A stretch of DNA of 64,000 nt from Squalus acanthias (lineage: Eukaryota): positions 155,870,001 to 155,934,000 of the forward strand of contig CM059431.1 of assembly GCA_030390025.1 (NCBI GenBank), in the 5' to 3' direction. A program made the position numbers and the translations under genes. Of this stretch, positions 13,491 to 49,475 are shown in pieces. The first letter of the stretch is position 1. Every line of letters starts with the position of its first letter. The notes under the pieces were generated by a model. It had not been told where the DNA came from, searched no databases, and was given only the letters and a program-made list of their open reading frames with translations.

Positions 13491-16400
13491 CACAGGAATG
13501 CAGGTAGTTGATTGGTTGTTGAATATTACAGTCTGGTTTAGTCTCTCAGCTCGCTAAGAAACTGTAAATTGTTATAACTTTACTTTATTAAATTAGTAAC
13601 TAAACTAGCTAAACTAATTAAGTAATAAAACTGAAATAATTGATGAAAAAATAATTAATGAACTAATCCAATAAATAAAGGTTACATACATATGGTAGAG
13701 TAGGTGGTGTGACGTAACTGCAGCATGTATGAGTTTGTGGAGATCAGCGAGTTCCCAAGCAATCACGTCTGCGGTAAATGTCTGCAGCTCGAGGAACATC
13801 GGCTCAGATTTTTTGAGCTAGTGTACGAAGTGCAGACATTAGGATGCATCAGGGAGGGGAAGAATTATCTGGACACTTTCCTCCAGGAGGCAAACACACC
13901 CCTTCGGTTCAGTAGTACTTTAGAATTCGTCAATGGTCAGGGACAGGATGGTGTGACTGCGAGTCAGGAATGTATGGGGACCCAGGATATAGTGATGGAG
14001 ATTCTCGGCCCTTGACTTTGACCAAAAGGTATGAGATAGTTGCTACCTGTGGGAATGAGAACAAGGACTGCAGGGTGGATGAGCAAACTGACCATGGCAC
14101 CATAATGCAGGAGGCCATTCAAGTGGGGGCAGTGAAAAGGAATGTGGTAGCGGTAGGGGACAGTATACTCATAGGGATTGATACTGTCTTCTGCAGCCAC
14201 GACCGGGATTATTAAAGGTAGTGTTGCCTGCCCGGTGTCACGTTAAAGGACGTGTGCTCGTGGAAAGAAAAGAACCTGGAGTGGGAACGGGAGCATCCAG
14301 TTTTCATAGTTCGTGTAGAAACCAACTGAGAGGAGAGAGAGAGGGGCTGCTGAGAGAGCTTGAGAAGTTAGGTTCGAAATTAAAACGCTGAACCTCACAA
14401 TAATAATCTCAGGATTGTTACCCGAGCAACACGCAAATTGGCACAGCGGAAAACAGATTAGAAGATTAAATGAGTGGCTCAAAGTGTGATGTAGGAGGCA
14501 AGGGTTTCAATTCATGGGGCGCTGGCACCAGTATTGGGGAATGAGGGAGCTGTTCCGTGGGGGCGGTCTCCACTTAAAACGGCTGGGACCACTGTCCTGG
14601 TGAATCGTATAACGGGGGTGGTAGATAGGGCTTTAAATTAATGAAGGAGGTGGATGCGGGTTTGGGAGGATTCAGGAAAGTGTAAAATAAAATGCATTAA
14701 GAGAAATATCATAGCGGTAGAGCAGAGTAGTGATCTGAGTGAAGATAAGCAGTGTGGGTCAGGAAGGGACAAAACGATTAATAAAGGTCATAGGGAATTA
14801 GTGGCGAAATGACATCAGGGAAAATTGAAAACACGTTTAAGTTAAAGGTAGCACATCTGAATGCGGAAGCATTCGCAATACAATAGATGCATTCAAAATG
14901 CAGATCGAAATAAAGTGGTTTGATTTAATAGCCATTCCTGAGATATGGTTGCAGAGTGCCAAGTTTGGAACTAAATAATTGAATTTTAGAAGAGACAGGC
15001 AGAATGGAAAAGGAGGAAGGGTAGCCCTGATATTAAAGGAGGGATTAAAGGCAGGAAGGAAAAAGGATCTTGGCTAGGAAGAAACAAAATATAGAATCAG
15101 TTTGGGTGGAGCATAGAAAAAACAAGATGCAGAAAAAATAGTGGGAATAGTCAATAGCCACCTAACAGTGATTGTAGTGTCGGGCAGAATATAAATCAGG
15201 AAATTAGAGGTAAGTGTAACAAGGGCAATAAAGTAATCATTAGGGACATTAATTTTCATATAGATTGAGTAAACCAATTTAGCAAAAAAAGTGCAGAGGA
15301 AGAGTTCATGGAATGCATTCAAAATAGTTTATAGATGAGTATGTCAAGGAACCTAGGAGGGAATTGCATATTTTAGTTCTACTACTGTGCAATGTGACAA
15401 GGTTAATTAATAACCTTGTTTTAATGGAACCTCTGGGGAGCAGTGATTAAAATATGATAGAATTTTAGGTTCAGTTGAGAGTGATTACTTTATGTTGAGT
15501 TTGAGAGTGATTATTTAACAATATAGGTTCCCGAACCTGAACAAAGAATGCACAGAATGTACTCTGGGTGCGGGACTTCAATGTCCATCACCAAGAGTGG
15601 CTCGGTAGCACCACTACTGACTGAGCTGGCCGAGTCCTGAAAGGAATAACTGCCAGTCTGGGCCTGCGACAGGTGGTGAGAGAACCAACACGAGGGAAAA
15701 AGCTACTTGACCTCGTCCTCACCAGTCTACCTGTCGCAGATGCATCTGCCCATGACAGTATTGATAGCAGTGATCACCGCACAGACATTGTGGAGACGAA
15801 ATCCCGTCTTCACACTGAGGACACCCTCCATCGTGTTCTGTGGCACTACCACCGTGAAAATGGGATAGATTCAGAACAGATCTAGCAGCACAAATCTGGG
15901 CTTCCATGAGACGCTGTGGGCAATCAGCAGCAGCAGAATTGTGTTGCACCGTAATCTGTAACCTCATGGTCCGGCAGATCCCTCACTCTACCATTACTAT
16001 CAAGCCAGGGGACCAATCGTGGTTCAATAAGGAGTGTAGAAGAACACGCCTGGAGCAGCACCAGACGTAACTAAAAATGAGGTGCCAACCTGTGGAAGAT
16101 GCAACACAGGATTACATGCGTGCTAAAAAGCGGAACCAGCATGCTATAGACAGGGCTAAGTGATCCTACAATCAACGGATCAGATTAAAGCTCTGCCGTC
16201 CTGCCACCTCCAGTCGTGAATGGTGGTGAACCATTAAACAACTAACGGGAGGAAGAGGCTCCATGAATATCCCCATCCTCAATGATGGTGGAGCCCAGCA
16301 CGTGAGTGCAAAATGCAAGCTGAAGCGTTTGCAATCATCGTTATCCAAAATGCGGAGTGGATGATCCATATCGGCCTCCTCCCGAGGTCCCCACCACCAC

Positions 16401-19080
16401 AGAAGCCAGTCTTCAGCCAATTTGATTCTCTCCACGTGATATCAAAAAACGGCTCAGCGCATTGGATACAGCAAATGTTATTGGCCCTGACAACATCCCG
16501 GCTATCGTGCTGAAGACTTGCGCTCCAGAACGAGCCGCGCATGTAGCAGAGCTGTTCCAGTACAGCTACAACACTGGCGTCTATCCGACAATGTGGAAAA
16601 CTGGCCAAGTATGTCCTGTCCACACAAAGCAGGACAAATCCAATCCTGCAAATTACTGCCCGATCAGTCCACTCTTAATCATCAGCAAAGTGATGGAAGG
16701 TGTAATCGACATTGCTATCAAGCAGCACCTACTCACCTATAACCTGCTCACTGATGCCAAATTTGCGTTCTGCCAAGACCACTCTGCTGCCGACCTCATT
16801 ACAGTCTTGGTCCAAAAATGGACAAAGGAGCGGAATTCCAATTGTGAGGTGAGAGTGACTGCCCTTGACATAAAGGCATCATGTGACCGAGTGTGGCATG
16901 AAGGAGCAAGCTAAAACCGAAGTCAATGGGAATCAGGGGTAAACTCTCCACTGGCTGGAGTCATACCTAGGACAAAGGAAGATGGTTGTGGTAATTGAAG
17001 GTCAATCATCACAGCCCCAGGACATCGCTGCAGGAGTTCCTCAGGGCAGTGTCCTAGGCCCACCCATCTTCAGCTGCTTCACAATAGACCTTCCCTCCAA
17101 CATAAGATCAGAAATGGAGATGTTCGATGTTTACTTCACATTGTTCAGTGCCATTCGCAACTCCTCAGATAATGAAGCAGTCCATGCCCGCATGCAACAA
17201 GACCTGGACGACGTTCAAGATTGGGCTGATATGTGGCAGATAACATTCGCGCCACAGAAGTGCCAGGCAATGTCTATCTCCAACAAGCGAGAATCTAACC
17301 ACCGCCCGTTGACAATCAATGGAATTACCGTCGCCGAAACCCCCACCATCAGCATCCTGGGGGGTCACCATTGATCAGAAACTTAACTGCATCAGCCACA
17401 TAAATAAGGTGGCAAAAAGAGCAGGTCAGAGGCTGGGTATTCTGCGGCGAGTGTCTCACCTCCTGACTCCCCAAAGCCTTTCTACCATTTACAAGGCACA
17501 AGTAGGCTGTGTGATGGAATACTCTCCACTTGCCTGGATGAGTGCAGCTTTAACAACACTCAAGAAGCTTGACACCATTCAGGACAAAGCAGCCCGTTTG
17601 AATGGTACTCCATCTACCACGTTAAATATTCACTACCACCATCACCGGCGTACCGTGGTTGCAGTGTGTACCATCTACAAGATGCACTGCAGGAACTCGC
17701 AACGCTTCTTCGGCAGCACTTCCCAAACCCGCGAACTCTTCCACCTAGAAATCCAAGGGCAGCAGGCGCATGGGACCACGAGAACCTCCAAGTTCCCCTC
17801 CAAGTGACACACCATAATGACTAAGACGTGTATCGCCGATCCTTCATCGTCGCTGGCTCAAGTTCCTTGAACCCTCTACATAACAGCACTGTGGGAGTAC
17901 CGTCAGCACACGGGCTGCAGATTTTCAAGAATGCGGCTCAGCACCAGCTGCTGAAGGGCAATTAGGGATGGGCAATAAAAGCTGGCCTTGCCACCGACGT
18001 CCGCATCCCATAAACATATAAAAAAATTCGCAGTTATGAGAGGCGAGTTGGCTACGGTAGTTTGGGTAACTAGAATTAAAAAAATGAAATCAGGAAAGCA
18101 GCGGGAAATATTTAGAAAAAGGAATTCAGAATCCATAGTGAATTTATATTACTTAAGAAATTAAATCAACACGGGAAAAATGGTTCAACCTTGGCTAAAA
18201 AGAGAAATTTAAGATAGTATTAGATTAAAGGAAGAGGCTTATAATGTTGGAAAAAAGTGTTGTAAGCCTAATGATTGGGAGGGTTTAGAATTCAGCAAAG
18301 TAGGCACAACAAATTGCTAAAGAAAGTGAGAATAGAATATGTGAGTGAACTAGAAAGAGACATAACATACACTGTACAAGCTTCTATCAGTATGTGAAAA
18401 GGCAAAGATTAGCGAACGTAAACGTGGATCCCTTACAGGCTGAGACAGGAGAAATTATAAAGGGAAATAAGGTAATGGAAGGTAAATTCAACAAATACAT
18501 TGTGTTTGCCTGCATGGAAGAAGATGCAAAAAACCTCCTGGAATAGTGGAGAACCAAAAGTCTAGCGAAAATGAAGAACTGAATGAAATTAGTATCAGTT
18601 AAAAATAGTACTGGAGAAATTAATGGGACTGAAAGTTGATAAATCCCGTGGAACTAATGGGCACATCCTAGGGTTTTAAAAAGAGGTATCTGCGGAGAAA
18701 ATGCATGCATTGGTTGTCATCATCCAAAATTCACAAGTTTAGAAGGGTTCCCGTGGGTTGGAAGGTAGCAAGTGCAACCCCACTATTTAAGACAGGAGGG
18801 AATGAAAAAATGGAGAACTACAGTCCAGTTAGCCTGACATCAGTCACATGGAAAATGCTAGAATCTGTTATTAAGGACGTTTTAACAGGACACTTATAAA
18901 AATAATAATAGGATTGGGCAGAGTTAGCACGAATTTATGAAAGGGAAATCGTGTTTGAGAATCATGTTGGAGTTTTTTGAGGTGGTAATTAGCCGAATAA
19001 ATAAGGGGGAAGCAGTTGGTACTGTGTAGTTGGATTTTGGGAAGTCAATTCGTTAAGGTGTCAGACAAGAGGTAAGTAAA
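13490..19080 (+). mobile_element. Decayed near-full-length CR1 (5'UTR, ORF1 zinc-finger/SGNH esterase, ORF2), split by the LINE at 15549-18025
   Basis: ORF1 HVCGKCLQLEE and AVGDSILIG; endonuclease 14850-15540. ORF2 resumes after 18025 (NLNK|..MRGELA; WKVASATPLFK..NYSPVSLTS). Confidence 0.9.
15549..18025 (+). mobile_element. 5'-truncated copy of the tRNA-headed LINE family (endonuclease end, RT, 3' tail), nested in CR1
   Basis: ORFs 16462..16914 (GPDNIPAIVLKTCAPE..NYCPIS..ALDIKASCDRVWH), 16982..17374 (GVPQGSVLGP) and 17319..17807. Collinear with 47065-49475. Ends aagggcaattagggatgggcaataaaagctggccttgcc..catccca plus A-rich tail. Confidence 0.95.
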
Positions 19081-19084
19081 CTTT

Positions 19085-20480
19085 ATGGCTTTATGAAGGG
19101 GAAGTCATGTCTGACAAATTTGCTTGAGTTCTTTGAGGACATAACGTACAGGGTGGAAAAAGGGGAACCAGTGGACGTAGTGTATTTAGACTTCCAGAAG
19201 GCATTCGACAAGGTGCCACACAAACGATTATTGCTGAAGATAAAAAAAATCACTGGATTGGGGGTAACATTCTGGCATGGGTGGAGGATTGGTTATCTAA
19301 CAGGAAGCAGAGAGTTGGGATAAATGGTTCATTCTCGGACTGGCAACCAGTAGCCAGTGGTGTTCTGCAGGGATCGGTGCTGTGTCCCCAAATCTTTACA
19401 ATCTATATTAACGATTTGGAGGAGGGGACCGAGTGTAACATATCAAAGTTTGCAGATGATACAAAGATGGGAGGGAAAGTAGAAAGTGAGGAGGACATAA
19501 AAACCTACAAGGGGTATATAGACAGGCTGGGTGAGTGGGCGGAGATTTGGCAGATGCAATACAATATTGGAAAATGTGAGGTTATGTACTTTGGCAGGGA
19601 AAATCAGAGAGCAAGTTATTATCTTAATGGCGAGAAACTGGAAAGTACTGCAGTACAAAGGCATCTGGGGGTCCTAGTGCAAGAAAATCAAAAAGTTAGT
19701 ATGCAGGTGCAGCAGGTGATCAAGAAGTCCAACGTAATGTTGGCTTTTATTACTAGGGGGATAGATTATAAAAACAGGGAGGTATTGCTGCAGTTATATA
19801 AGGTATAGGTGAGACCGCACCTGGAATACTGCGTACAGTTTTGGTGTCCATACTTAAGAAAATACATACTTGCTCTCGAGGCAGTACAAAGAAGGTTCAC
19901 TCGGTTAATCCCGGGGATGAGGGGGTGGACATATGAGAGGAGGTTGAGTAGATTGGGACTCTACTCATTGGAGTTCAGAAGAATGAGAGGCGATCTTATT
20001 GAAACATATAAGATTGTGAACGGGCTTGATCGGGTGGATGCGGTAAGGATGTTCCCAAGGATGGGTGAAACTAGAACTAGGGGGTATAATCTTAGAATAA
20101 GGAGCTGCTCTTTCAAAACTGAGATGAGGAGAAACTTCTTCACTCAGAGGATAGTGGGTCTCTGTTATTTGCTGCCCCAGGAAGCTGTGGAAGCTACATC
20201 ATTAAATACATTTAAAACAGAAAAAGAAATTTTCCTAGAGGTAAAGGAATTAGGGGTTACGGTGAGCGGGCAGGAAATTGGACATGAGGCTGAGCTCGGA
20301 TCGGTCAGGTCACTGTGGGTGGCGGAGTGGGCCCAGGGGCTGAGTGGCCGGGTCCTGCTCCTACTTCTTGTGTTCTTTAGATTTGAGGTTAGGATCAGAT
20401 CAGCCATGATCTTATTGAATGGCGGAGCAGGCAGAGGGGCCGTTTGGCCTACTCCTCCTCCTATTTCTTATGTTCTTATA
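19085..20480 (+). mobile_element. Younger 5'-truncated CR1 (RT plus 3'UTR with duplicated terminal module)
   Basis: KGKSCLTNLLEFFE, VYLDFQKAFDKVPH, SKFADDTK and RPHLEYCVQFW. Two successive 3' stem-loop modules at ~20283-20378 and ~20385-20480. Confidence 0.95.
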
Positions 20481-20484
20481 TTCT

Positions 20485-20830
20485 TATTATCTCTCTACTC
20501 CCTCCTCTCTTCTCTCTCCTATCTCTCCCGTCTCTCTCCCCCCCTCTCTCTCTCCCACTTCCTCTTTCGCTCCCTCCTCTTGCTCCTCCTTATCTCTCTC
20601 TCCCGCTGTCTCTTCCTCTCCCACTACTGTCTCCCCCACCTCTCTCTCTCCCTCCTCTCTGTTCCCTTCGACACGACTCTACCTCTCTGATTCCCACACT
20701 CTCTCCCTTTCTCGGATTTCCTCTCTCTCTCTCCCCCCCCCCCCCCTTTGTTTTCGTCTCTCTCCCGCCCTTCCTATATCCTCTCTCTCTTGCCTTTTTA
20801 TCCTCTCTTCCCCCCCTCTTCCACCTTCGG
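20485..20830. repeat. CT-rich low-complexity/microsatellite tract
   Basis: Almost pure pyrimidine on the + strand; it explains the Leu/Ser/Pro ORFs in the track. Confidence 0.95.
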
Positions 20831-20949
20831 ATGCAGTGACGTTCTAAGACGGAGCTAATAACTGTGGCGGACTGACGGCCGCCAATTCTAGGTATTGTGC
20901 ATGCGTGGGTCCGGGATACTGCGCGCATATACAGAACAGATGCCCGTGC

Positions 20950-21352
20950 AGATAATCATTCCGATTTCAAAAGCCTCATTCTCGTGCTTTAAGCGCCCCA
21001 TATCTTTGACACTCACTTTCTCTATAAACGTCTGCAAGGCTACAATCATCCGAGAAATCTACCTTTCTGAATCACTGAACTCTTGTGCATTCCCCTTCCT
21101 TGGCATCGCCATTGGCTGTCGTGCATTCAGAGTCTGGTCTATAAACTCTGGAATTACCTACCTAAACTTCCCCGCCTCTGTGACAATATCTACTCCTTTC
21201 AGACTCTGATTCAAACCTAGCTCTTTGGCCAATCGATTGATCGCCTGTCCTAATGCTTTTTGGCTCGGTGTCAATATGTTTGTGGATTACATTCCTGTGT
21301 AGCGTCTTGGGACGTTCAAGGCGTTATATAAATGAAAGTTGTTGTTGTTGTT
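20950..21352 (+). mobile_element. Old L2 3' end
   Basis: ctctggaatt.. motif and tail ggcgttatataaatgaaa(gtt)n, as at 8140-8170. Confidence 0.75.
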
Positions 21353-21481
21353 CGGTAACGAATTGATTTCAGTGGATCACAACATCCCGGAACTAATTTA
21401 CAATGACGCTTAGATTTTGAATTTTGCTTCACGTTTCACTTTGAAATCGTGAAATGACGCAATTCTTGGTATCTAATGTAC

Positions 21482-21648
21482 CTGATATTCACGGTCATCA
21501 ATTATGCGTGCAATCAGTAACTCCTTGCCAAAACTTTCAACACAATCTTTAATTGCGTCTTCCAATCCCCGTTGGTAGAAATGTATGATTCCACGGAGTT
21601 GTAAGTCACTCAAACGTTCCAGTAATGCCTTGAATTTAGCCCCGGCGT
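21482..21648 (-). CDS. Coding exon (167 nt, phase 1-0): first half of a CARD-like domain of a probable NLR-family gene
   Basis: Strong acceptor tgctcctttctcgttcctccatcgactttAG| (21650-21649) and donor CAG|GTACAT (21481). Peptide (D)AGAKFKALLERLSDLQLRGIIHFYQRGLEDAIKDCVESFGKELLIARIIDDREYQ. The spliced IIDDREYQHVR resembles the CARD helix-3 motif (compare ASC VLTDEQYQAVR). Confidence 0.8.
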
Positions 21649-22439
21649 CTAAAGTCGATGGAGGAACGAGAAAGGAGCACATCGCTTAAAATAATGCCAT
21701 ATCAATTATTCCTGCAGTTCCGTAATTGGGTAAAATTTCAGAGATTAATTTTTAATTCCTGGGTTACTCTGTGGTGGTGAACTTTCTCAGTTTTGAAACC
21801 CAGGCCAACACCTAAGGAAGATATTTGAAAAAGTTGAAGATCAGAGAAACTAATTCATGTCTACCCATGCCACCACCAACCCCCCCACCAAAAAAAAAAC
21901 TCGTTCACTATCTGGCTGCGTTAGGAATATTAAACAGAAATACTCAGAATCGATATGATCACGTATATATCAATACATTTCATTGGTAACAACATGGTGA
22001 GTATGAAAGAATTCAGGAGTGTAGGAGTTGGATGGATTGCCCTGTACAGATTCTGAGATATATTATCCAGAATGTCGCAATTCTCGTGATCAGTTCTTTT
22101 GTCTATAAGTAAAATATTTACCGAAATTTTAGTGATCGTTTCGGCAAGGGACCAGTGTGGTCTGCACAGCATGGTCTTAAAACGTGTGCACTTAAACAGA
22201 GTGTGAAATTTGGGAATTTGTAGAATGTAGAAGTCTATAGTAAGTACTGGGTGATTGCTAGCTTTAAAAAAAATGAAATTACTTGAACATTTTAAATTTA
22301 ACGTGCAACTTTATAAACTGCAAAATAAGCTGCAGTCAAAAGAAACTACTTGTCAGTGGCACTTAAAAGTCAATAAGCAACAAGTATTTTTTTCTGAACA
22401 GTTGCTAATTATTCTGAGCAGGAAGCTGTGTCAGCACAT

Positions 22440-23348
22440 GTAACTTGGGTGTGGCTCCAAATAGTATAAAAGTAACCAGTATCTCTTGACGCACAGAGTG
22501 GACTGCGCAACGTTGGCTGAAACAGAGTACACTTAAATAGAGTTAGTGTTGGGAATTTGGACAGATTGGAAATGCGGAGCAGAAGTGGAAGCAGTGGCTC
22601 CTTCTTGTCTTCAATAATTGTACTGGTTTGCGCTACAGGAAAATATTTAATTTCATCTAGATGTAAGTTAAACTAGATATATCAATTAGTTAATAAATAA
22701 ACTAAGTGAATGAAATATATACATTTTAATTCATCAAATAAATAAAAAAATGTTATATGTGGATGGCAGTGCAGGTGGTGTGCCGCACCTGCAGCATATG
22801 GGAGTTTGTGGCGACCATCGTGATCTGGGACGACCACGTCTGTAGAAAGAATGCATCTCCAGGAAATTCAGCTTAGTGTTGTTGAGCTGGACTCCGAGGT
22901 GCAGATATTATGGGGCATCAGAGAGGGGGAGAGTTACATGGACACTTTGACCCAGGATCAATCACACCCCTAACATTAGGTAGTGGTACAGATCTGATTA
23001 GAGAGCCGGGAAAGGAGTTGTATGACTGTGACTCAAGCAGGTAAGGGGTCGTCAGATGTAATGTTGGAGGAGCCTCGGCGTTTGGAACATGTACGAGATT
23101 CTTGCTGCCTGTCTGCATGAGGACAATGTCTGCAGGGTGGATCAGTAAACTGATCATAGCTCAGGAGGTCAGTCAAGTGGTGAGAGTGAAAAGGAATGTT
23201 TTACTGGCAGGGGACAGTATGGTCAGGAGGATAGATACTGTTCTCTCCAGCCGCAACTGGGAGTATTGAGCTGTGTTGACTGCCTGGTTTGAGGGTGAAG
23301 GGAGTGAAGGGTATGGGAATGGGAAGGCAAAGAAATAGTTGTCGTGGT
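22440..23348 (+). mobile_element. CR1 5'UTR plus ORF1 fragment, abutting the pseudo-exon
   Basis: C..C.M/IWE...HVC zinc-finger-like codons (tgccgcacctgcagcatatgggag) and 'gcaggggacagtatggtcagg' (GDS). Homologous to 13690-14330 and 52050-53020. Confidence 0.8.
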
Positions 23349-23759
23349 CTCGTTAGGATATTTCTGTCTCGTTGCAGGCAGGACTGCTTTTTGTAGATGT
23401 TTTGGTGTGAGATTTGGTCTCGCTGGAAACTCTTTGTTCTATTTCTTTCTTAATAACTTTCTCCTTGCCACAAGATGTTGCGGTGCTCCTGTTAGTTCCT
23501 GTAACGCTATGATGCATGCTGTAGTTTTCTTTCGGACTCTAATTGTTCGTGAAAACAACGCAAAAATGTCTACCTTTGCCTTCTAGTGTGTTATGCTTTC
23601 GGTCACCTGATGCTTTCCGCCGAGGTTCACTGATATCGGACATAGTTAAATCGCCCAGTTCATTCCAACTACGAGAGCGCCAGTTCCCTGCTTTGAGCTT
23701 TGTTCATTTCCGGGATCCGACTTTCGGATTCCCAGCAGTGAAGTCAACACAAGATGAAG
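23349..23759 (-). pseudogene. Degenerate paralogue of the 552-nt linker exon (pseudo-exon)
   Basis: SSCVDFTAGNPK..VFTNN*SPKE..KKEIEQRVSSETKSHTKTS aligns by eye with SPCGDIIAENPK..LFTKNVSHKE..KKLEQSAPTGTESHTNTS. Stops at 23706-23704 and 23541-23539; the acceptor AG is changed to AA. Confidence 0.7.
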
Positions 23760-24099
23760 TTTATTTCTCTAAACGAAAGATGCAGATACTCAACATCAAT
23801 ATTGGTAGATCTGATGTTACTGAATTTTACCAGTAAGAGATTTACAGTTTAAGAGATTTACACGTTCCATATTTTACTATCCTTATTATGATACGGTATT
23901 GACAGCGCTCACAAAGTTTATCCTCAAAAACAATCATAAATAATAATTCGTCAAACTATTTTGACATATAAATCATTTTGAATGCAAAAAGCGGGTAGAA
24001 ATCGAAGGCCACTGATCGTTTGTATAATATATTTCGTTATGTAATTGTTTAAATCGCACGTTATTTTCTCCAATATCCCTGAACGTATTATCTCCTCAC

Positions 24100-25170
24100 A
24101 GATCTCTACCCACCTTTACTTAAACATTTTGCTGATCCTTTCAATCAAGTTTCTGCCCCTCCAATAGCCCTAAAACGGTTCAAACCGCAACCCACCTTCC
24201 GTTCAAATAGTAATTAATGCCTTTGTCACGTCCAGAGATCATTACTACAATGCTACAGTCACCACCATTAACCTGCAGAAAAGTTAATTCATCCAAAACT
24301 CTACTGCTCGTATCTTAACACAACCAAGCTCTCGATTGCCCAATACCGAGTCTTCATTAACCTACACTGGCTCCGAGTCTTCCAGTATCTCAAGATCAAA
24401 TGTATCTTCCTTGTGTTTAAATGCGTCCATAACATAAGAACATAAGAACATAAGAAATAGGAGCAGGAGTAGACCAATCGGCCCCTCGAGCCTGCTCCGA
24501 CATTCAATGAGATCATGGCTGATCTGATCCAACCTCAACTCTAAAGAACACAAGAAGCAGGAGCAGGACCAGGCCACTCGGCCCCTGGGCCCGCTCCGCC
24601 ACCCACAGGGCCTTGACTGATCCGAACTCAAACTCATGTCCAATTTCCAGCCCGCTCCCCGTAACCCCTGATTCCATTTACTTCTTGGAAACGGTCTATT
24701 TCTGTTTTAAATTTATTTAATGAAGTAGCTTCCACAGCTTACTTGGGTAGCAAATTCCACAGACCCACTCCCCACCACCAATCGCTATCTCTGCAATAAA
24801 CTGTAACACAATTTACCCCATAATACTCTCCATTCCGCTGAATCAGCCCTCATGTAAACACTCAGTTCCATCGCCCCACCATGCATTGTTTAATTATTTA
24901 AACCGCGTTCTATTCTCTTCATGATCCTAGAAACTGGCTGTGTCTTGAGCTGCGTAGGTGACCCTCTCTGGAATCGTTTCCCCTACTACACCTCCCTATT
25001 CTCCTTTCTGTCATTTCTTAAATCCACCTCTTTGGTCAATCTTTTGGCCACCCGCAGAAATAGCTCCTTTAACTTGGCATTCTAATTTACCGATCATTCC
25101 GTCAAATGCCGTCAACATTTTTCTGTGTTAAAAGATCTATGTCGATATATGATTGCACTATGTTGTTCAT
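24100..25170 (+). mobile_element. Old L2 fragment interrupted by a minus-strand CR1 3' end (24428-24770)
   Basis: L2: 'gcctttgtcacgtccagagatcattactacaatgc' (AFVTSR.DY.N) and ctacactggctcc (LHWL). CR1 insert: (cataagaa)n plus double 3' module, reverse complement of ~20150-20480. Confidence 0.85.
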
Positions 25171-25904: not shown

Positions 25905-27752
25905 TTTATAGATATGTGAAGAGAAAAAAATTAGTGAAATCAAGTGTAGGTCCCTTGCAGTCAGAAGCGGGGCAAGTTATAATGGGGAACAAAGAAATGG
26001 CAGCCCAATTAAATTCATATTTTGGTTCTGTCTTCACAAAGGAGGACACAAATAACCTCCCAGAGATGTTGGAGAACATACGGTCTGATGAAAGGGAGGA
26101 ACTGAAAGAAATCAGTATTTGCAGGGAAATGGTGTTAGGGAAATTGACGGTATTGAAGGCCGATATATCCCCAGTGCCAGATAATCTACATCCTAGGGTA
26201 CATAAGGAAGTGGCCCTAGAAATAGTAGATGCATTTTTGATCATCTTCCAACATTCGATGGAATCTGGAACTGTACCCATGGATTGGAGGGTAGCTAATG
26301 TTACCCCACTATTCAAAAAGGGTGGTAGAGAGAAAGCGGGGAATTACAGACCGGTAAGCCTGACATCGGTAGTGGGGTAAATGCTAGAGTCCATTATAAA
26401 GGATGTAATAGCTGAGCATTTGAAACACAGTGACAGGATCGGACAAAGTCAACATGGATTTACAAAAGGTAAATCGTGCTTGACTAATCTACTGGAATTT
26501 TTTGAGGATGTAACTGGGAAAATAGATAAGGGAGAACCAGTAGATGTGGTGTATTTGGACTTTCAAATGGCTTTCGATAAGGTCCCGCATAAGAGATTAG
26601 CGTGTAAAGTTAAGGCACATGGGATTGGGGGCAAGGTATTGACTTGGATAGAGAACTGGTTCGCGGACAGAAAGCAGAGAGTAGGAATTAATGGGTCTTT
26701 TTCCGAGTGGCAAGCAGTGACTAGAGGGGTACCGCAGGGATCGATCCTTGGACCCCAGCTATTCACAATATACATTAATGATCTAGATAAGGGAATTAAA
26801 TGTAATATCTCCAAGTTTGCAGATGACACAAAGCTGGGTGGGAGTATGTGCAGCGAGGAGGATAGCGAGAAACTCCAGGATGATCTGGACAGGTTGGGTG
26901 AGTGGGCAGAAGCGTGGCAGATGCAATATAACGTGGATAAGTGCGAGGTTATCCACTTTGGTGTCAAAAACAGAAAGGCAGACTATTATCTGAATGGCAA
27001 TAGATTGGGAGAAGGGGAAGGGCAACGAGACCTGGGTGTCCTTGTGCACCAGTCGCTGAAAGTAAGCATGCAGGTGCAGCAGGCGGTGAAGAAGCCAAAA
27101 GGATGTTGGCCTTCATAGCGAAAGGGTTTGAGTATAGGAACAGGGATGTCCTGCTGCAGTTGTACAGGGCCTTGGTGAGACCACACCTTGAGTACTGTGT
27201 GCAGTTTTGGTCGCCTTATCTGAGGAAGGATGTTCTTTCCATGGAAGGAGTTCAGCGAAGATTCACAAGGCTGATACCTGGGATGGCAGGAATGACATAT
27301 GAGGAGAGATTGGGTCGATTGGGCTTATACTCACTGGAGTATAGAAGAATGAGAGGGGATCTCATCGAAACATATAAAATTCTGACAGGTCTGGACAAAC
27401 TAGATGCAGGAAGAATGTTCCCGATGGTCGGAGAGTCCAGAACCAGGGGTCATAATCTACGGATAACGGGTAAACCATTTAGGACAGAAATGAGGAAGAA
27501 TTTATTCATTCAGAGAGTGGTGAATCTGTGGAATTCTCTACCACAGAAGGTAGTTGAGGCGAAGTCATTAAATATATTCAAGGATGAGTTAGATATATTT
27601 CTTAAAGCTAAAGGTATCAAGGGATATGGGGAGAAGGCAGGTACAGGGTACTGAGTTTAGATGATCAGCCATGATCTCATCGAATGGCGGAGCAGGCTCG
27701 AGGGGCCGAATGGCCTACTCCTGCTCCTATCTTCTATGTTTCTGTGTTTCTA
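25905..27752 (+). mobile_element. 5'-truncated CR1 with nearly intact RT region
   Basis: ORFs 25916..26380, 26381..27118 (LDFQMAFDKVPH, GVPQGSILGP, FADDTK) and 27103..27654; one stop and one frameshift; complete 3'UTR. Confidence 0.97.
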
Positions 27753-27754
27753 TC

Positions 27755-30290: not shown

Positions 30291-30294
30291 TGGT

Positions 30295-31019: not shown

Positions 31020-31430
31020 AATACATTCTTTGAATGTGAGCATCCCTGGCATTTGTTACCCATCCCTAATTTCACTTAACTGAATGGTTTGCTAGGACAT
31101 TTCAGAGGGCTGTTAAGTGTCAACGATATTGCTGTGTTTCTGGAGTCACAGCAGCTCCCACATCCAGCAAAGTGATAAGGACCACATTTCGGCCAGACCG
31201 GGTAAGAACGGCAGATTCCCTTCCCTAAAGGACATTAGTGAACCAGCTGGATTTTTACAACAATCCAATAGTCCATGGTCACTATTCTTCATACTAGCTT
31301 TTTTTCATGATTTACTAAAATAACTGAATTTAAAATTACCCAGCTGCTGTGGTGGGATTTGAACTCATGTCTCCAGATCATTAGTCCAGGTCCCTGGATT
31401 CACTAGTCTAATAACATAAGCTCTATGCCC
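31020..31430 (-). mobile_element. tRNA-headed SINE (head joined directly to the LINE tail), nested in a CR1 3' fragment (30840-31830, +)
   Basis: B box GAGTTCAAATCCC. Core GGTTCACTAATGTCCTTTAGGGAAGGGAATCTGCCG. Junction ..CCATTCAGTT|AAGTGAAATTAGGGATGGG. Confidence 0.9.
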
Positions 31431-33880: not shown

Positions 33881-33882
33881 GA

Positions 33883-39000: not shown

Positions 39001-40510
39001 CCGTCCGACTTGTACCGGTCCCACCATCCCCAGAAGCAGAGCCAGTGAACCAGGAAACTAAAGGCCTCCCTCCTGCAGCAACTCTTTAGCCACGCATTCA
39101 CCTGCTCTATCCTCCTATTCCTATACTCACTAGCACGTGTCATCGGGAGTAATCCAGAGATTACAACCTTTGAGGTCCTGCTTTTTAATCTGCTGCGTAG
39201 ATCCCTACATTCTTGTTGCAGGACCTCATCCCTCTTTCTACCAATGTCGTTGGTACCAATGTGAACCACGACCTCTGAAGTTTGCCCTCCCGCTTCAGAA
39301 TGCCCTGCAGCCGTTCAGTGACATCCTTGACTCTGGTACCAGGGAAGCAACATACCATCCTGGAGTCATGTCTGCGGCCACATAAACGTCTATCTGTTCC
39401 CCTTACGATAGAATCCCCTATCACTACTGCTCTCCCACTCTTTTTCCTCCACTCCTGTGCAGCTGAGCCACTCGTAGTGCCACGTGCTTGACTTTTGCTG
39501 CATTGCCCTGAGAAAACATCACCCCCATCAGTTTCCGAAACACAAAATCTGTTGGAGAGGGAGATAGACCCAGGGGACCCCTGCACTACCTTCCAATTCT
39601 TTTTCTCTGTCTGGCGGTCACCCATTTCCTGTCTGCCTGTGCAGTCTTTACCTGCAGTGTGACCACCTCGTTAAACGTGCTATCCACGAAGATCTCAGCG
39701 TTGCGGATGCTCCACAGTGACTCCAGCCGCAGCTCCAGCTCCGAAACGCGGTTTTCTACTAGCTGTACCTGGAGACTCTTCCTGCACATGTGTTCGCCCT
39801 GGACGCCTAAAGTGTTCCTGACTGCCCACATAGCACAAGAGGTGCACTCCACCAGCCGAGCTGCCCTGCCATGTCCTACCCTTAGTTTTCTCCCTTTACT
39901 TCCTTTAAATTAATGAATATTAAATACACCAGCCACCTTACTTCCCTTTAAGCACTACTTACTCTAAACTAGAGACCTTACTTTGCCTTTAACGACAGGA
40001 CTGTAGAAATACTCACCAGGTCCTACTTACCAATCAGCTCCTTCTCTGGCTGTGACATCACTTTAGCTGTTTCGCAGTTGTTGTTGTTTGACTGCTCCTG
40101 CTCTCGTACTCTTTCTTTGGTGTTAGTAAGAACCAATACCTACAGGGGGAAAAGTTGGGAAAAACAAAGGCGAAGCAAGGGAGCTACTCCTTCCACTCCT
40201 CACCTAGCTCCCTGACTCACTCAACTCGCAGCACTCTGTTTAAACTGAACTCAGTGCAAAATCGCACTTCAAAACCTGTTTTTATAGGACCTGAAACAAT
40301 GGAGCTTGCTGTTTTCTGCTACAGGAGAACCAATCTAATTTCCCTAATTAACTGCCGTCAGCTGCTCTGAATTATAGGCCTTGTATATCCCTTTATAACC
40401 ATGCTTAAAGCTGGAAAATTTAGATTTTAAACAGTAAACAGTAACAGTAAATGTGAAACAAACAACAGTTTTAGCAAACAGTTAAGCATTCTGTTTAAAC
40501 CGCACCCAGT
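36073..40510 (-). mobile_element. Full-length (~4.4 kb) CR1 LINE with 9-bp target-site duplication; ORFs disrupted
   Basis: TSD CTTTATTTC at 36064-36072 and 40511-40519. 5'UTR ~39880-40510. ORF1 MECTSCAMW..VIGDSIVRG..HIGTNDIG..DGL (zinc finger plus SGNH esterase). ORF2 YDIVAVIETW, YYRP, GDFN, FADDTK. Confidence 0.95.
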
Positions 40511-40886
40511 CTTTATTTCGGTTTCTGTACATGGTTTTAGATTGAATTAAATGTTTTAATTCATGATTCTAATTTAGACTCTGGGTGCCTCAGTAAGGAT
40601 CCATCAATCTGATTATTTCAGGAGAAATTGATTTACTTGCCCTGTTCACACAGGTCCCAGATACAAGGACGCCTATTTTAAATGGATTTCCAATTGCCGC
40701 AAAACGCAGAACAAAAACCGACTAAACGTTTGTGGGAAGTTGTAAGCATAATGAATGACGAGCGCCGTTCATTCTCTAGCGACCGCATAATCCTCCCCAA
40801 TTATCTTTGTACTACTACACAAATAAGTGATGATTTCGCGACATTAAAACACCATAATTGTGCTCAAAAATAATGCGAGTCCTTAC

Positions 40887-40922
40887 CTTTGTTCTTCGTT
40901 GCTGTTTCTAGTCCCAGAGTAT
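40887..40922 (-). CDS. Candidate 36-nt micro-exon (phase 1-1) of the host gene
   Basis: Acceptor ctaatttattAG| and strong donor AAAG|GTAAGG. Reads (D)TLGLETATKNK(D) and splices in frame to exon 21482-21648. Confidence 0.5.
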
Positions 40923-42130
40923 CTAATAAATTAGTTTTATGGATTCGACAGGTTAATGAACACACCCTGGGTAAAGTTCAGTTACACATCACAGTCATAA
41001 ACACAACCTTCAATCCCGACCCGCCTGTTTTCTGGTGCAGATCTCTTTCTGAATCATACACTGTCTGAAACAGATTGAAAACTTCTGATTAATTACTGAT
41101 CCTTTACCCAATGGCATTAACCCTCTGTGTCTTAACAATCTCTAAATTTCGCCCCGCTCTTCCTTCTGTGGTTCAGAAGAATCCGCCAAGAAAACGGGTT
41201 CTGCAGCCATAATCAGTTCCTTGTCCTCAAATCGATTGATTACTCACCACAACACATCTTGAATATTCGAATGTGAAAGGGCACAAAGACCAAGGTACAA
41301 AGATCGATAATTAAAATCTCCAGCAAATAGTTTCCAGTTCATGAGTAATAGTTTGGGCCTTTATCAGAATGGTCCCACACATGAGTATCACGATCCAGGT
41401 TTCATGTACTTGTCCTAATCAGCAAATGTGTGGGTTAAATTAGTGACATTTCTGCTTTATCAGCCTGTTAACTTTTATTGTTGGTAATTTAATTTCACAT
41501 TTTAATTTAATCTTTCTTTTAACATTTTGGCAGCGGATTCATTTAAAGGTCAGGCTGAGCAAGTCAGAACATTAAAATAATTTCTAACATTTGAATTGAA
41601 TATGAATATTAAAAGTGGATGCTACTTTTTGCGCCTCATCTGTGTCTCATTCCCCTTCCTGCTTCTCTGTGCTGCCAATCCCAATCTATTTCTGGCTTCC
41701 CTGCTTCGTCTCTGAAAATTCTTCATTTTTCCTGTCCGCTTCACTCCCTGATTCTGTGCCTCACCTTTAATGTTTGCTTCCCTCCCTCACCGGTTCCATA
41801 TCTCTTTCTCCCCCGGTTTCCCTTCTCTTCAGCTCTATGTCTCATTCTTTCGTAATTTAACTTCCCCAGATGCATTTTAATTCCATCTGCTCCATCCCTG
41901 AATGCCCCCTGCATCTGTAAACGCCTCCACCTCTACAGTCTCCTCCACCATAAACTCTCTCCCTAATACATTATTCCTTCGCCAAACAGTTGCAATCAGA
42001 ACTTGACCCTTGCCCATCGTTTCCTCCTGTTCATCTTGATGCTGAAGAGTTCCTAAAATGCTTATAGGAGTACTTTATTGATCAGTATGTTTCGAGCCCA
42101 AATAGGAGCAAAGCAGTGCTGGATCTACTG

Positions 42131-45100
42131 GGTGCAGCCAGAGTCAATTCCACGGCACCGCGGGTGGCTCAGCTGCACAGTGGTGGGGTGGGGGTGAGAG
42201 GAAAAAGAGTGGAAGAGCAATAGTTGTAGGGGATTCGATAGTTAGGGGAGCAGACAGGCGTTTCTGCGGCCGCAGACATGACTCCAGGAATTTATGTTAC
42301 CTTCCATGTGCCTCGGTCAAGGATGTTACTCAGAGGCTGCAGGACACTCGGTGGGGGGAGGGTGAACAGCCAAAGGTCATTGTCCATACCATACAAACGA
42401 CATAGGCAGAAAGAGGGATGAGGTCCTGCAGGCAGTGCTTAGGGAGATTGGAGACAGATTAAAAAGCAGGACCTCAAAGGTAGTAATCTTCGGATTGTTC
42501 CCGCTGCCGCGTGCTAGTGAGTACAGGAATAGAACGATGGAGTCGATGAATGCGTGGCTGGAGAGATGGTGCAGGAGGGATGGCTTTAGATTCCTGAGGC
42601 ATTGGGAACATTTCTGGGGAAGGTGGGACCTGTACAAACCGGACGGCTTACACATTAGCAGAGCCGTGACCAATATTCTCGAGGGGAGGTTTGTCAGTGC
42701 TGTTGGGAAGGGTTTTACTTAACTTGGCAGGGGTAAAGGCACCAGCATATAGGAGTAGAAAAGAGAAATAAGGTGCATAAAAGAGTGAATATATTGGATA
42801 GTACTAGAGAAGATAGTACTAAAGGCGGTAGTAGTAACATATTAGATAGGAGCAGACTATGAATGACTTCGAAAAATTCAAAAAGGAGTTTAGAATACAT
42901 GTGCGTAAACGCACAAATTGTGGTGAATAATGTTGGTGAGCTACAAGCACACTTAACTGTATGACAATATAATGTGGCAATAATGGAAACGTGGCTCAAA
43001 AACGGTGAGGACTGGGCATTTAATATTCAAGGGTACAAGGTGTACAGAAAAGATAGGGAGGGGAAAACGGGAGGTGGAGTGGCAGTGCTGATTAAGGAAG
43101 ACACTGTATGTTTGGAAAGGGAGGATGTTCCTGAGGGGACAAGGACAGAATCCATTTGGTTACAGTTGAGGAGCAAAAAGTGTATGATCAAGATTTTGGG
43201 GTTTTCTTTCGGCCTCCAATTATTGAGAGGGAGGTAGACTAGCAAATCTGCAGGGAAATCGCTGAGATATGCAAGAGCTGTAGAGTGGTGATATTCGGGG
43301 ACTTTAATTTCCCAAATATCATTTGGGATAATGCTAGGGTAAAGGGAAAGAAGGTGAGAAATTATTGAAATACATCCACGAGAATTTCCTTGACCAATAT
43401 GTTCTTGGCACATTCAGGAAGGAGGCATTGCTGGATCTGGTGCTGGGGAATGAGGTGGGCCAGGTCGACCAAGTTTCTGTGGGAGAACAGTTGGGTATTA
43501 GTGATCATCGTATCATAAGATTTAGATTAGCAATGGAGAGGAGCAAGGAACAATCTAGAGTGGAACTTCTAAATTGGAATAGGGTTAAGTTCAATGGGAT
43601 GCGAAAGGATCAAGCCAGTGTAAAATGGTTCCAAAGACTGACAGGAAAAACTGTAACGTACAAATTGGTCATCTTTAAGAAGGAGATGTACCAAATACAG
43701 GCTAGGAACATTCCAACAAGAGGGAAGGGTAAGGGACCAAAGCAATGGCAACTTGGATGACGAGAGAGATAGAGAAGACGATGAAACAAAAAAAGAGGGT
43801 GTATGATGCATGTCAGGTGAATACTTCAAGGGAGAACCATACAATAAGTTCAGAGGGGGTGTGAAGATGAAAATAGAATTGGCAAAGAGAAAATATGAGA
43901 ATAGAATGGCGGTTAGCATAAAAGGGAACCCCAATATCTTCTACCGGCATGTAAACAGTAAGTGGGCAGTAAGAGGTGGTGTGGGGCCTATTTGAGACAA
44001 AGAAGGAAATATATCCTTAGAGGCGCAAGGCAGGGCTAGAATACTCCATGAGTACTTTGTATCGGAGCCTACTAAGGAGATGGATGTTAAAAAAGTTTCG
44101 GTATCAGTGGAAAAGGTAGAAGCAATGGAAGGAGTGAAAATTGATAGACAGGCTGTACTCGAAAGGCCGGGTATGCTTAGAGAGGTCAAGTCGCCAAGTC
44201 CAGATGGCTTGCATCCCGGCTGGCTAAGGGATTTGTGGGTGTAGATAGTGGAACGGCTTGCCTTAATTTTCAAATCTTCCCTAGAGGCGAGGGTGTTGCC
44301 TGAGTATTGTAAAGGTGCAAATGTCACACCATTGTTCAAGAAAGGCTGTAAAGACAATCCTAGTAACTACAGGCTGGTCAGTTTTTAACATCAGTGGTGG
44401 GTAAATATTTAGAAACAATAATAACGAAAAAAATTATCGGGGTTTTGGAAAGTTTTAATCTAATTAATGAGATAATGAAGATCGAGTTTGACTTATCTAA
44501 ATGAATTTTTTGATGAAGTAACAGAAATGATTGTTGAAGGGAATGTAATGGATATGATCTACATGGATTTTCGGAAGGCCTTTGACAAAGTACCACACAG
44601 CAGGCTGGATAACAAAATTGAGTTTCGTGGAATAGGTGGGTCAGTGGTAGCTTGGATAAGGAATTGGCTTTAAGACAGAAAACAGCGACATTTGGCAAAT
44701 GGTTGTTATTCAGACTGGAGCATGGTAGACAGTGGTGTTCACCGAGAGTCAGTGCTGGGGCCACTGCTTGTTTTATATATATATAAATGACATGAATATT
44801 GGAAAACAGAGTAGAATTTCTAAATTTTTCGATGACACCAAACTTGTGGGGTTGTCAAACCGTGATGACGATATCAATCGACTGCAACAGATCATAAAAA
44901 GGCTAGCAGAATGGGCAGACAAGTGGCAGATGGAATTTAATACAGAGAATTGAGAAGTGCTGCATTTTGTCAGAAGTAACAGGGAGAGACAATATACACT
45001 TAATAGCACTGTTTCAAAGAGTGTGCAGAGACAGAGGAACTTGGGAGTTAATGTGCATCGGTCCCTAAAGGTGGCAGCGATTATTGAAACAGTGGTTAAC

Positions 45101-45750
45101 AAAGCATTTGGGCGCTTGGGCTTCATAAATAAAGGTATTGAGTACAAAAGTAGAGAAGTAATGCTGAAGCTTTAAAAAGCGTTGGTTAGGACACAACTGT
45201 ACTATTGCGTCCAGTTCTGGTCCCCACACATTAGGAAGAATGTGAAGGCCCTTGGGAGGTTGCAGAGGACATATACCATACTGATTCCGGAGATGGGGAA
45301 TCTTAGCCAGAAGTACATGTTGGAAAAGCTGGATTTATTTTCATTAGAGCAAAGGAGGTTGGGGGTTGATTTGATATATGTGTACAAGATTAGGACGGGT
45401 TTGGATAGGCTATACGGGGAATGGCTGTTCCCAATAGTTGATGGTACAAGGACAATGGGACACAGATTTAAAGTTTTGGGCAAGAGATACAGGGGGAATG
45501 TGTGCGGTTTTTTTTTACACAGCGAGTGGTGATGACCTGGAATTCGCTGCCGATAGAAGTGGTGGAAGCGGAGACACTCAATGTTTTCAAGGGGAGACTT
45601 TATAGCCACTTGAGGGAAATAAACTTGCAGGCTCCGGGGATAGAGCGGGGGAATGGGACTGACTGGATTGCTCTACAGAGAGCAGGCACGCAATCGATGG
45701 GTTTAATAGCCTCCCTCTCTGCCGTTATAAATCTATGACAATATGACTCT
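42131..45750 (+). mobile_element. Near-full-length decayed CR1 (ORF1 esterase, ORF2, 3'UTR) inserted in an older CR1
   Basis: VVGDSIVRG; WDLYKPDGLH; AIMETWLK; FFDDTK; tail ctatgacaatatgact. Confidence 0.92.
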
Positions 45751-46247
45751 AGTTTCGGAGACTGTATTCGGGCACATGGAGTGTGTTTCTGTGGGCGAAC
45801 ATCTGGTTAATAGAGATCATAATATAATTAGGTTTAAAGATGTTATTGAAAGTGAAAAAATAAAATCAACGATGAAATCTCATTTCAGTGTTTTGAGAAT
45901 GGAAACAAAGATTGACCAATGAAACAGTAAATGAACAAAAACAGGCCTTCAACAAGGAGATAATTTGTCTATAACCAGGCAAGTTCCTAAAAGGAGGAAA
46001 GATGTGGCATCCAAAGCTAGATTTCCCTGGATGAAAAAGAAGTAGAGGTTAAAAGAAAAAAGAAAAAGGAGGTTTATAAAAACTTTCAGGAAAAAAATAC
46101 AATCGAAAACCAGACATAATAGATAATGCAGGGGAAAATTTAAACTGGATATAAGAAGGACAAAGACCGATTATGAGAAAATATCAGCAGGTAATATTAA
46201 AGGGAAACCAAACATCATTAAACATAAAAAGTAAAAGGAATGGTGGA

Positions 46248-49200
46248 TACAGTATCATAGTGGTTAAGTTACTGGACAATTAATCCAGGGGCCTGGATAA
46301 ATGATCCGGTGATATGGTTCAAAATCCCTCCATGGTAGCTGGTGAATTTACTTTCAGTTAATTAAAGACATCTGGAATAAAAAGCTATTATCAGTAATGG
46401 TAACCATGAAACTATCGATTGTCGTAAACTCCCATCTGGTTCACTAATGTCCTTTCGGGAAGGAAATCCGTCGTTCATACCTGGTTGAGCCTGTATGTGA
46501 CCCCAGACTCATTGCAATGTGATTGGCACTTAACTACCCTCTGAAATGGCCTAGCAAGCCACTCAGTTGTAACAAACCGCTACGAAGCAAAATAATAAAA
46601 ATGAAACCGGACAGACCACCCGGCATCGACCTCGGCACCGGCTATGGACACGACAACGGCACACCCAGCCCAATCAACACGGCAAATGCCTCCTCACCAA
46701 CATCTGTGAACTTGTGCCAAAATTGGGAGGGCTGTCCCACAGATTAGTCAAGCAACAACCTGACATAATCATTTTCACAGAATCATACCATTCAGCCAAT
46801 GTCCAAAACATCATCATCCCTGGGTATGACCTGTCCCACCAGCAGGACAGACCCACCAGGGGTGGCGCCACAGTGGTATACATTCGGGAAGGAGTAGCAC
46901 AGGGTGTCCTCAGCATTTACTCCGGAACCCATGAATTCTCATGGCTTCAGGTCAAGAATCGGCAAGGAAACCTCCTGCTGATTATCAACTACCGTCGTCC
47001 TCAGCTGATGAATCACTACTCCGCCATATTGAACACCACTTGGAAGAAGCAATAAGAGTTGCAGGGGCACAGAATGTACTCTGGGTGGAGGATTTAAATG
47101 TCCATCAACAAGCGTGGCTCGGTAGCAACACGACTGACCGAGCTGGCCGAGTCCTTAGGCCTCGCGAGGTGGTGAGAGAAACAACACGAGGGAAACACCT
47201 ACTTGACATCGTCCACGCCAATCTACCTGTCGCAGATGCATCTGTCAATGACAGTGTTGGAAGAAGTGAACACCGCAAAGCCATTGTTGAGACGAAGTCC
47301 CGTCTTCACACCGAGGGCACCTTCCATCGTGCTGTGTGGCACTACCACCGTGCTAATTGGGATAGATTCAGAACAGATCTTGCAGTTTAAAACCGGGCAT
47401 CCATGAGGTGGTGTGGGCCATCAGCACCAGCATAATTGAATTCCAACAGAATCTGTCACCTCATGTCCCGGCTTATCACTCACTCTATCATTACCATCAA
47501 GTCAGGGGACCAATACTGGTTCAATAAGGAGTGTAGAAGAGCATGCCAGGAGCAGCATCGGGAGTGCCTAAAAATGAGGTACCAAACTAGGGAAGCTGCA
47601 ACACAGGACTACACGCATGCTAAAAATCGGGAGCAGCATGCTATAGACAGGGTTAAGCGACCCCACAATCAGCGGATCAGATCAAAGCTCTGCAGTCCTA
47701 CCACATCCAGTCGTGAATGGTGGGGAACCATTAAACAACTAACGGGCGGAAGTAACTCCATTAATATCCCCATCCATAATGGTGGTTGATCCCAGCACGT
47801 GAGTGCAAAAGACAAGGCAGAAGCGTTTGCAATCATCTTCAGCCAGAAGTGCCGAGTGGATGATACATATCGGCCTCCTCCTGCCGTCCCCACAATCACA
47901 GAAACCAGTCTTCAGCCAATTCGATTCACTCCACGTGATATCAAGAAACGGCTGAGCGCACTGGATACAGCAAAGGTTATCGGCCCCGACAACATCCCGG
48001 CTATCGTGCTGAAGACTTGGGCTACAGAACTAGCTGTGACTCTAACCAAGCTTTTCCAGTACAGCTACAACACTGGCATCTATACGGCAATGTGGAAAGC
48101 TACCCAGGCATGTCCTTTCTAAAAAAAGCAGGACAAATCCAATCCGGCCAATTACCGCCCCAACTGTCTACTCTCAATTATCAGCAAAGTGATGGAAGGT
48201 GTCATCGACAGCGCTATCAAGCGGCACTTACTCACCAATAACCTGCACACGGGTGCCAAGTTTGGATTCGGCCATGACCACTCGGCTCCCGACCTCATTA
48301 CAGCCTTGGTCCGAACATGGACAAAAGGAGCTGAATTCCAGAGGAGAAGGGAGAGTGACTGCCCTGAGCAAAATTTAATCGAGTGTGGCATGAAGGAGCC
48401 CAAGTAAAACTGAAGTCAATGGGATTCAAGGGGAAACTCTCCCCTGGCTGGAGTCATACCTAGCACAAGGACGATGGTTGTGGTGATTGAAGGTCAATCA
48501 TCACATCCCCAGGATATCACTGCAGGAGTTCCTCAGGGCAGTGTCCTAGGCCCAAACATCTTCACATGCTTCATCAAAGACCTTCACTCCTAAATAAGGT
48601 CAGAAATGGGAATGTTTGCTGATGACTGCACAGAGTTCAGTGCCACTCTCAACTCCTCAGATAATGAAGCAGTCCAGGTCCGCAGGGAACAAGACTTGTA
48701 CGACTTTCAGGCTTCGGCTGATAAGTGGCAGGTAACATTCGCGCCACAGAAGTGTCAGGCAATGAATATCTCTAATAAGCGAGAGACCAACCACCGCCCC
48801 TTGATATTCAATGGCCTTACCATCACCGAATCCCTCACCATCAACATCCTGGGTGTCGCCATTAACCAGAAACTTAACTGGAACAGCCACATAAATACTG
48901 TGACAACAAGACCAGGTCAGATGCTGGGTATTCTGCGGCGAGTGTCTCACCTCCTGACTCCCAAAAACCTTTCCACAATCTACAAGGCACACGTAAGGCG
49001 TGTGATGGAATACTCCCCACTTTCCTGGATGAGTGCAGCTCCAACAGCACTCAAGGCGATCGACACCCTCCAGGACAGAGAAGCCAGCTTGATTGGCAAC
49101 CTATCTAACACCTTAAATATTCACTCCCTCCACCACCGGCGTACCATGGCTGCAGTGTGTACCATCTACAAGATGCACAGGTGGAACTCGCCAAGGCTTC

Positions 49201-49475
49201 TTCGGCAGCACCTCTCAAACCCGCGATCTCTTCCACCTAGAAGGACAAGGGCAGCAGACGCATGGGAACACCACCACCTCCACGTTCACCTCCAAGTCAC
49301 ACAGCATCCTGACTTAGAAGTATATCGCCGATCCTTCTTGGTCGCTGGGACAAAATCCTGGAACTCCCCACCTAACAGCACTGTGGGAGTACCATCACCA
49401 CACGGACTGCAGCGGTTTAAGAACGCAGCTCAAAACCATCTTCTCAAGGGCAATTAGGAATGGGCAATACATGTT
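46248..49475 (+). mobile_element. Near-full-length tRNA-headed, ORF1-less LINE (single APE-endonuclease plus RT ORF, CR1-group-like), disrupted
   Basis: A-box-like TATCATAGTGG (46253-46263) and B-box-like GTTCAAAATCC (46317-46327), then SINE core to ~46570. Then LLTNI..VPKL..PDIIIFTES..GG..VY..YR..DLN..TRG..LD, RT (GPDNIP, GVPQGSVLGP, MFADD) and tail ctcaagggcaattaggaatgggcaat. Confidence 0.92.

Follow-up and report, generated by a model that had tools for sequence, protein, structure and literature searches.

Short Pol III terminators are missing from the coding strand of a tRNA-headed LINE family in Squalus acanthias

The genome of Squalus acanthias contains an abundant LINE family in which a tRNA-like head, carrying A and B boxes, stands on a coding element of 3.3 kb, and the coding strand of this element is free of the shortest working Pol III terminators. 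Comparisons among copies and with other LINEs suggest that this is likely because source copies were transcribed by Pol III end to end from the A and B boxes. That the copied RNA of the family originates from Pol III and is translated in cis is, on balance, the probable reading.

In the usual view, LINEs depend on Pol II, and SINEs are passengers that Pol III transcribes and that code for no protein. If this reading is true, a self-sufficient element combining a Pol III promoter with a selected coding strand would break the division of polymerases between the two classes; a Pol III RNA would serve as mRNA in nature, and a LINE could give rise to a SINE directly, by deletion. The scarcity of runs of four T (T4) had been noticed in a preliminary description of the window, the 64,000-nucleotide stretch of DNA analysed here. 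We add controls showing that the terminator set and a test on shared variants, and not the absence of T4, hold the signal.

Architecture of the family and its copies

Copies were collected by searching the family's own genome with the junction of head and ORF, which gave 7198 first-look candidates, 40 of them scored and 39 fetched; a second junction query and a protein query each contributed 20 more (79 in total). The majority sequence of 3305 bases was built from 23 of the first 39 fetched copies and the two copies of the window, both of which belong to the family (25 aligned). It opens with a tRNA-like head bearing A and B boxes and continues through a Deu-type body and a single frame of 973 codons to a short tail and an A run. 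The label of the body (Deu, as in SacSINE1) is our presumption.

Copy A of the window (forward strand) opens with the tRNA-like head at 46245–46340, with base 5 of the majority sequence at 46249. Judged by the familiar type-2 patterns of A and B boxes, its A-box-like motif (46253–46263) is decayed, while that of the majority sequence fits, and its B-box-like motif (46316–46327) carries one extra A. The Deu-type body (46440–46572) ends the 329-base leader and is followed by a broken copy of the endonuclease-reverse transcriptase frame (46573–49454) and by the start of the 3' tail (49455–49473); ~40 terminal bases are missing, as is the A tail. Copy B (15550–18028, forward strand) is 5'-truncated, starting from majority base 831, and has the full tail, a short A run and 91.5% identity to the majority sequence. 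The reverse strand holds a decayed fragment of head and body (31078–31428) and a short SINE form (2605–2989), in which head and body (majority 5–300) are joined to the tail (3206–3294) without the ORF; contigs hold joints like this one at several breakpoints. An older copy with a decayed head and the ORF start lies at 60530–61044 on the forward strand. It was considered as a second tRNA-headed LINE family, and hence an independent replicate, and was traced back to the family studied here. The window belongs to a segmentally duplicated region, with paralogues (46245–49475 and 60640–61043 in the window; loci L011 and L012) that have common flanks and 88–95% identity within 153.9–159.4 Mb of G000:C7.

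That the LINE is headed by a tRNA-like sequence, as first proposed from the window, was borne out by finding the head, with its A and B boxes and a fixed start, on the 3.3-kb coding element. The start lies at base 1 in 28 of the 59 junction-selected copies and within the first 18 bases in 38 of them, and 4 of the 20 protein-selected copies also start at base 1; this position sits 8 bases 5' of the A box. No alternative common 5' end appeared among the 79 upstream flanks, where only the two segmental paralogues share flank sequence. ARAGORN made no call on the head at its default setting and a weak call at a 50% threshold, and Rfam tRNA gave no match to it. The A and B boxes diverge among copies by 4.7% and 2.9%, compared with 2.8–5.7% across the leader; extra conservation of the boxes was rejected, as it is not clearly above that of the rest of the leader.

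Endonuclease and reverse transcriptase share the single frame (Pfam PF14529, PF03372 and PF00078 on sister copies). ORF1 is absent: the 329-base leader contains no long frame, unlike two-ORF members with their upstream ORF1. Single-ORF members of the APE-type LINEs (CR1/L2 group) exist (PMC3894237, available text). Like LINEs of this type, the family has 5'-truncated, dispersed copies with a fixed 3' tail and no clear target-site duplications. It shares with SINE2 elements an A/B-box head at the 5' end, as seen from the motifs and the fixed start, but is not short and non-coding, having 3305 bases with a selected ORF. Pieces of its protein match, at 65–88% identity, proteins whose names refer to four genera of sharks and rays, and a protein tree groups the family with unnamed relatives, the best matches being 40–43% identical.

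Selection on the frame and the start of translation

After the two segmental paralogues were dropped and CpG changes excluded, 158 of the 328 ORF variants found in at least 3 of 77 copies are synonymous (48%), compared with 458 of 1847 private variants (25%; P about 1e-16). The frame is thus under purifying selection in amplified lineages, as an autonomous element requires, and this selection on shared variants implies that the amplified source copies needed their protein. Among 47 protein matches, none was a copy free of stops.

The same result bears on a possible division of labour, in which Pol III supplies the template RNA and the protein is translated from capped read-through transcripts that Pol II makes more rarely. 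This would account for the purge of terminators without translation of an uncapped RNA, and the tail, as the short SINE form shows, is usable in trans. However, purifying selection in amplified lineages fits a cis preference and the frame would have no ATG whichever transcript carried it, and of the explanations considered we hold this one to be the least probable.

The leader contains eight ATGs and the main frame has none before the endonuclease. Such an arrangement fits poorly with cap-dependent scanning (PMC3894237, available text), which counts against a conventional Pol II transcript. Six of the eight leader ATGs of the majority sequence (region ~46395–46550 of copy A) share the reading frame of the main ORF, with stops between them and the ORF, and one of these six opens a frame of ~35 codons inside the Deu-type body, possibly by chance. 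An ATG in the +1 frame near the ORF start was rejected as the true start, having been lost in several older copies. An Arg/Thr-rich N-terminal extension (window ~46580–46700) resembles the Met-initiated extensions of the relatives P0097 and P0100, and an in-frame ACG near the matching position is a candidate non-AUG start. Where older copies have deletions in this extension, the lengths are mostly divisible by three, but the stretch is repetitive. Folding of the leader was uninformative (z = -2.0, with 5 of 100 shuffles as good).

T4 runs in the family and in co-resident LINEs

The preliminary description placed two T4 runs in 46248–49475 and one in 15549–18025, with no T5, and these positions are exact: 46772–46775 and 48052–48055 are private to copy A and 17922 is private to copy B. 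All three are missing at the matching site of another copy, and the suspicion that the consensus has no T4 proved correct, the majority sequence holding none in 3305 bases. The 79 copies (219,942 bases) carry 36 scattered T4 runs, at most two per 10-base bin, as expected of post-insertion damage. Single copies are not below chance in dinucleotide shuffles (2 observed and 3.4 expected, P = 0.29; 1 and 1.9, P = 0.41). For the majority sequence, in shuffles that keep codon usage, as had been proposed, zero T4 compares with 1.9 expected in the ORF (P = 0.11) and with 2.8 over the whole element (P = 0.04). The absence of T4 alone proves little, and the T4 statistic is underpowered.

Two further contrasts drawn originally are accurate as counts and are explained largely by composition. 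A4+ runs are indeed frequent on the same strand (17 and 13) but equal the composition expectation (16.9 and 11.9). Likewise, the young two-ORF CR1 copy at 25905–27752 (forward strand) has the five T4–T6 runs reported, but the difference is mostly one of composition (T 0.24 and 0.21; CR1 5 observed and 4.8–5.1 expected).

Control sequences from the same genome were made from 14 of 20 CR1 copies, 20 RTE copies and 20 L2 copies. T4 runs in the main frame, observed and expected, number 6 and 9.6 in CR1, 1 and 3.4 in RTE, and 5 and 7.3 in L2. A T4 depletion special to the tRNA-headed family in comparison with co-resident LINEs was thus not upheld, all four families tested lying 1.2–1.6 SD below expectation. 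Nor did usage at Phe codons support it: TTC:TTT is 15:3, no different from the ratio at other NNY pairs (P = 0.12) or in RTE (26:8, P = 0.73). The RTE family (T 0.17) has only one T run in its 3.7 kb; this run, a T5 located at the stop codon and 5' of the tail, is kept in 11 of the 11 copies covering the site. No tRNA head was seen on the RTE family, its 5' end being known from two copies. This family (L270–L289) is young and single-ORF, with ~98% identity and no T4 in the 3.6 kb before the T5, and serves as a composition-matched control.

These results give some ground for explaining the missing terminators by base composition together with Pol II transcription. T is only 0.19 in the ORF, where the T4 test gives the P value above; RTE, with its one T run, and the other three families are all under the T4 expectation; an AATAAA lies ~40 bases before the 3' end of the family; CR1 is significantly depleted of terminators as well; and the protein clade of the family is Phe-poor (both below). 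We nevertheless consider this explanation unlikely, given its poor fit to eight upstream ATGs with no in-frame ATG and to the comparisons that follow.

Terminator set, T clusters and shared variants

The shortest terminators that work in mammalian cells are TTTT and TVTTT (PMC8466645, available text). With these mammalian-cell rules applied to a shark, the family has zero against 5.3 expected over the whole element (P = 0.0016) and zero against 3.5 in the ORF (P = 0.014), while its antisense strand has 17 against 18 expected. Observed and expected numbers in the controls are 4 and 5.8 in RTE, 14 and 14.0 in L2, and 5 and 6.8 in L190, the only relative of the same clade with DNA. CR1 (11 and 17.5, P = 0.006) is mildly depleted too, so terminator depletion is not exclusive to the tRNA-headed family.

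A broader statistic, chosen after five window sizes had been tried, counts stretches of six bases with at least four T. The family has 5 against 14.6 expected (2 of 10,000 shuffles; ratio 0.34), and clusters of A, C and G are normal. Among 125 other LINE frames, the usable ones of 160 public LINE loci and mostly distant and AT-rich, the observed/expected ratio is 0.99 +/- 0.06 with a minimum of 0.73; none of these frames has zero T4 and two have one. CR1 has 32 T clusters against 40.3 expected. RTE, L2 and L190 show no depletion of T clusters or TVTTT, although RTE and L190 match the family in composition, and this is difficult to reconcile with a compositional cause. One distant LINE frame (L250:3929–5977, T 0.29) has a single T4 against 8.4 expected, with normal T clusters; it is 5'-truncated.

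Variation among copies provides a separate test. Of the 939 rare non-CpG variants that change a base to T, 39 create a terminator, compared with 1 of 155 shared ones; stratified by codon effect, the shared class has 1 against 5.95 expected (P = 0.018). Mirror tests gave 15 against 13.3 for A and 5 against 3.8 for G, while C was also low (2 against 5.65, P = 0.08). The test was not significant when applied to T clusters (P = 0.31). Composition does not predict this deficit of terminator-creating changes among shared variants.

Selection on T clusters could also be real but have another cause in a Pol II transcript, such as pressure against pyrimidine-tract splice acceptors, against U-rich elements that mediate decay or binding, or from innate sensing of U-rich RNA. 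In keeping with this, the strongest signal comes from T-dense 6-mers and not just from the canonical T4, the TA dinucleotide is depleted too (92 against 112 expected), and CR1 has a weaker version of the pattern. But a pressure of this kind should hit RTE and L2 of the same genome, neither of which is depleted, and the TA depletion is common to RTE (76 against 92). General avoidance of UU was rejected, since runs of exactly two T are normal (64 against 66). We regard these causes as improbable, and more so than composition.

The original proposal of selection for full-length Pol III transcription therefore stands in part. The signal lies in the terminator set and the test on shared variants, joined by the T-dense 6-mers, and selection against terminators has moderate support; T4 alone does not reveal it, and transcription by Pol III is what we infer from it.

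Proposed mechanism

If the copied RNA is made by Pol III, transcription would start at the first base of the element, directed by the internal A and B boxes, and would read through 3.3 kb to stop in a T run of the flank. The resulting RNA, probably uncapped, would be translated independently of a cap and from a non-AUG start, and the protein would copy it by target-primed reverse transcription from the tail that the element has in common with the short SINE form. A mutation creating a terminator would cut the RNA before this tail, and a copy bearing it would leave few descendants. None of the contigs listed as carrying the family is recorded as RNA.

A more far-reaching and tentative reading of the same sequences is that the element is a natural protein-coding Pol III gene, with a 3.3-kb Pol III RNA that dispenses with cap and AUG, a Deu-type leader acting as ribosome entry site, and shark Deu-SINEs descended from it by repeated internal deletion. 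We think this possible, with the odds somewhat against it; if it were true, the long-unexplained conservation of the Deu domain would gain a testable cause.

Comparison with known systems

Among the closest known systems are the Deu-SINEs SacSINE1 and LmeSINE1. In cartilaginous fishes these likewise have a tRNA-related head and a Deu-type body, and their tail is one that a partner LINE also carries (L2-2_CM or CR1-4_DR-like; PMC5499810 and PMC3747384, available text). The short form at 2605–2989 has this layout and is putatively SacSINE1. These SINEs are non-autonomous, are shorter than 500 bp and have only the tail in common with a LINE (for SacSINE1, with L2-2_CM; PMC5499810, available text), whereas in the family studied here head and body stand on a 3.3-kb coding element.

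Bipartite SINEs derived from RTE and Vingi elements, and Bov-tA, likewise join the 5' part of a LINE to its 3' part via internal deletion (PMC5786205, available text). In that account, however, deletion precedes the gain of the tRNA head and the LINE is regarded as transcribed by Pol II, whereas the present LINE is already headed and is neither RTE nor Vingi. RTE-1_DAn and elements related to it are LINEs with tRNA-like sequence (PMC5786205, available text); they may be a precedent for a tRNA-bearing LINE, but belong to the RTE clade, unlike this family. Full-text searches listed no paper that describes an autonomous tRNA-headed LINE in sharks, and the family may already be catalogued in Repbase, Dfam or subscription papers.

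R2 elements are co-transcribed by Pol I in the rDNA; they are site-specific, use a restriction-like nuclease, and have an uncapped RNA with non-canonical initiation. They resemble the present family in being non-LTR elements with a single ORF whose RNA is not a Pol II product, which for the present family is our proposal. In contrast, the present element encodes an AP endonuclease and occurs dispersed, and its Pol III promoter would be its own.

Relatives and other tRNA-like heads

A clade of 27 proteins around the family (P0097–P0121 and related) is Phe-poor, and many members lie on contigs of 3.1–3.8 kb, which suggests more single-ORF elements. In the relative L190, T is 0.20 and the ORF contains only one T4; the 5' end of L190 lies off its contig. 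The Phe-poor clade and the low T of L190 imply that low T predates the head or is independent of it. Low Phe was rejected as a special feature of the family: at 1.85% it is the lowest in comparison with 114 homologues, but it is only 1.3 SD low after adjustment for composition, and it is clade-wide. No convincing A/B-box pair was found on relatives in 44 metagenome upstream regions or 15 selected loci, many of these contigs being without a 5' end; a first metagenome scan and a viral scan found nothing. For other tRNA-like heads present in the flanks, the parts read contained nothing to suggest a joined ORF.

The window also contains, at ~6900–7380 (reverse strand), another tRNA-headed SINE, ~480 bases long and with an L2-type tail. 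This SINE is presumably LF-SINE-like and occurs as well at L186:321–780 and from L014:135 onwards. In L186 it is inserted into a head of the family studied here. Among the loci L190–L269, many bacterial and archaeal genome bins contain eukaryote-type LINE contigs, which are probably host contamination.
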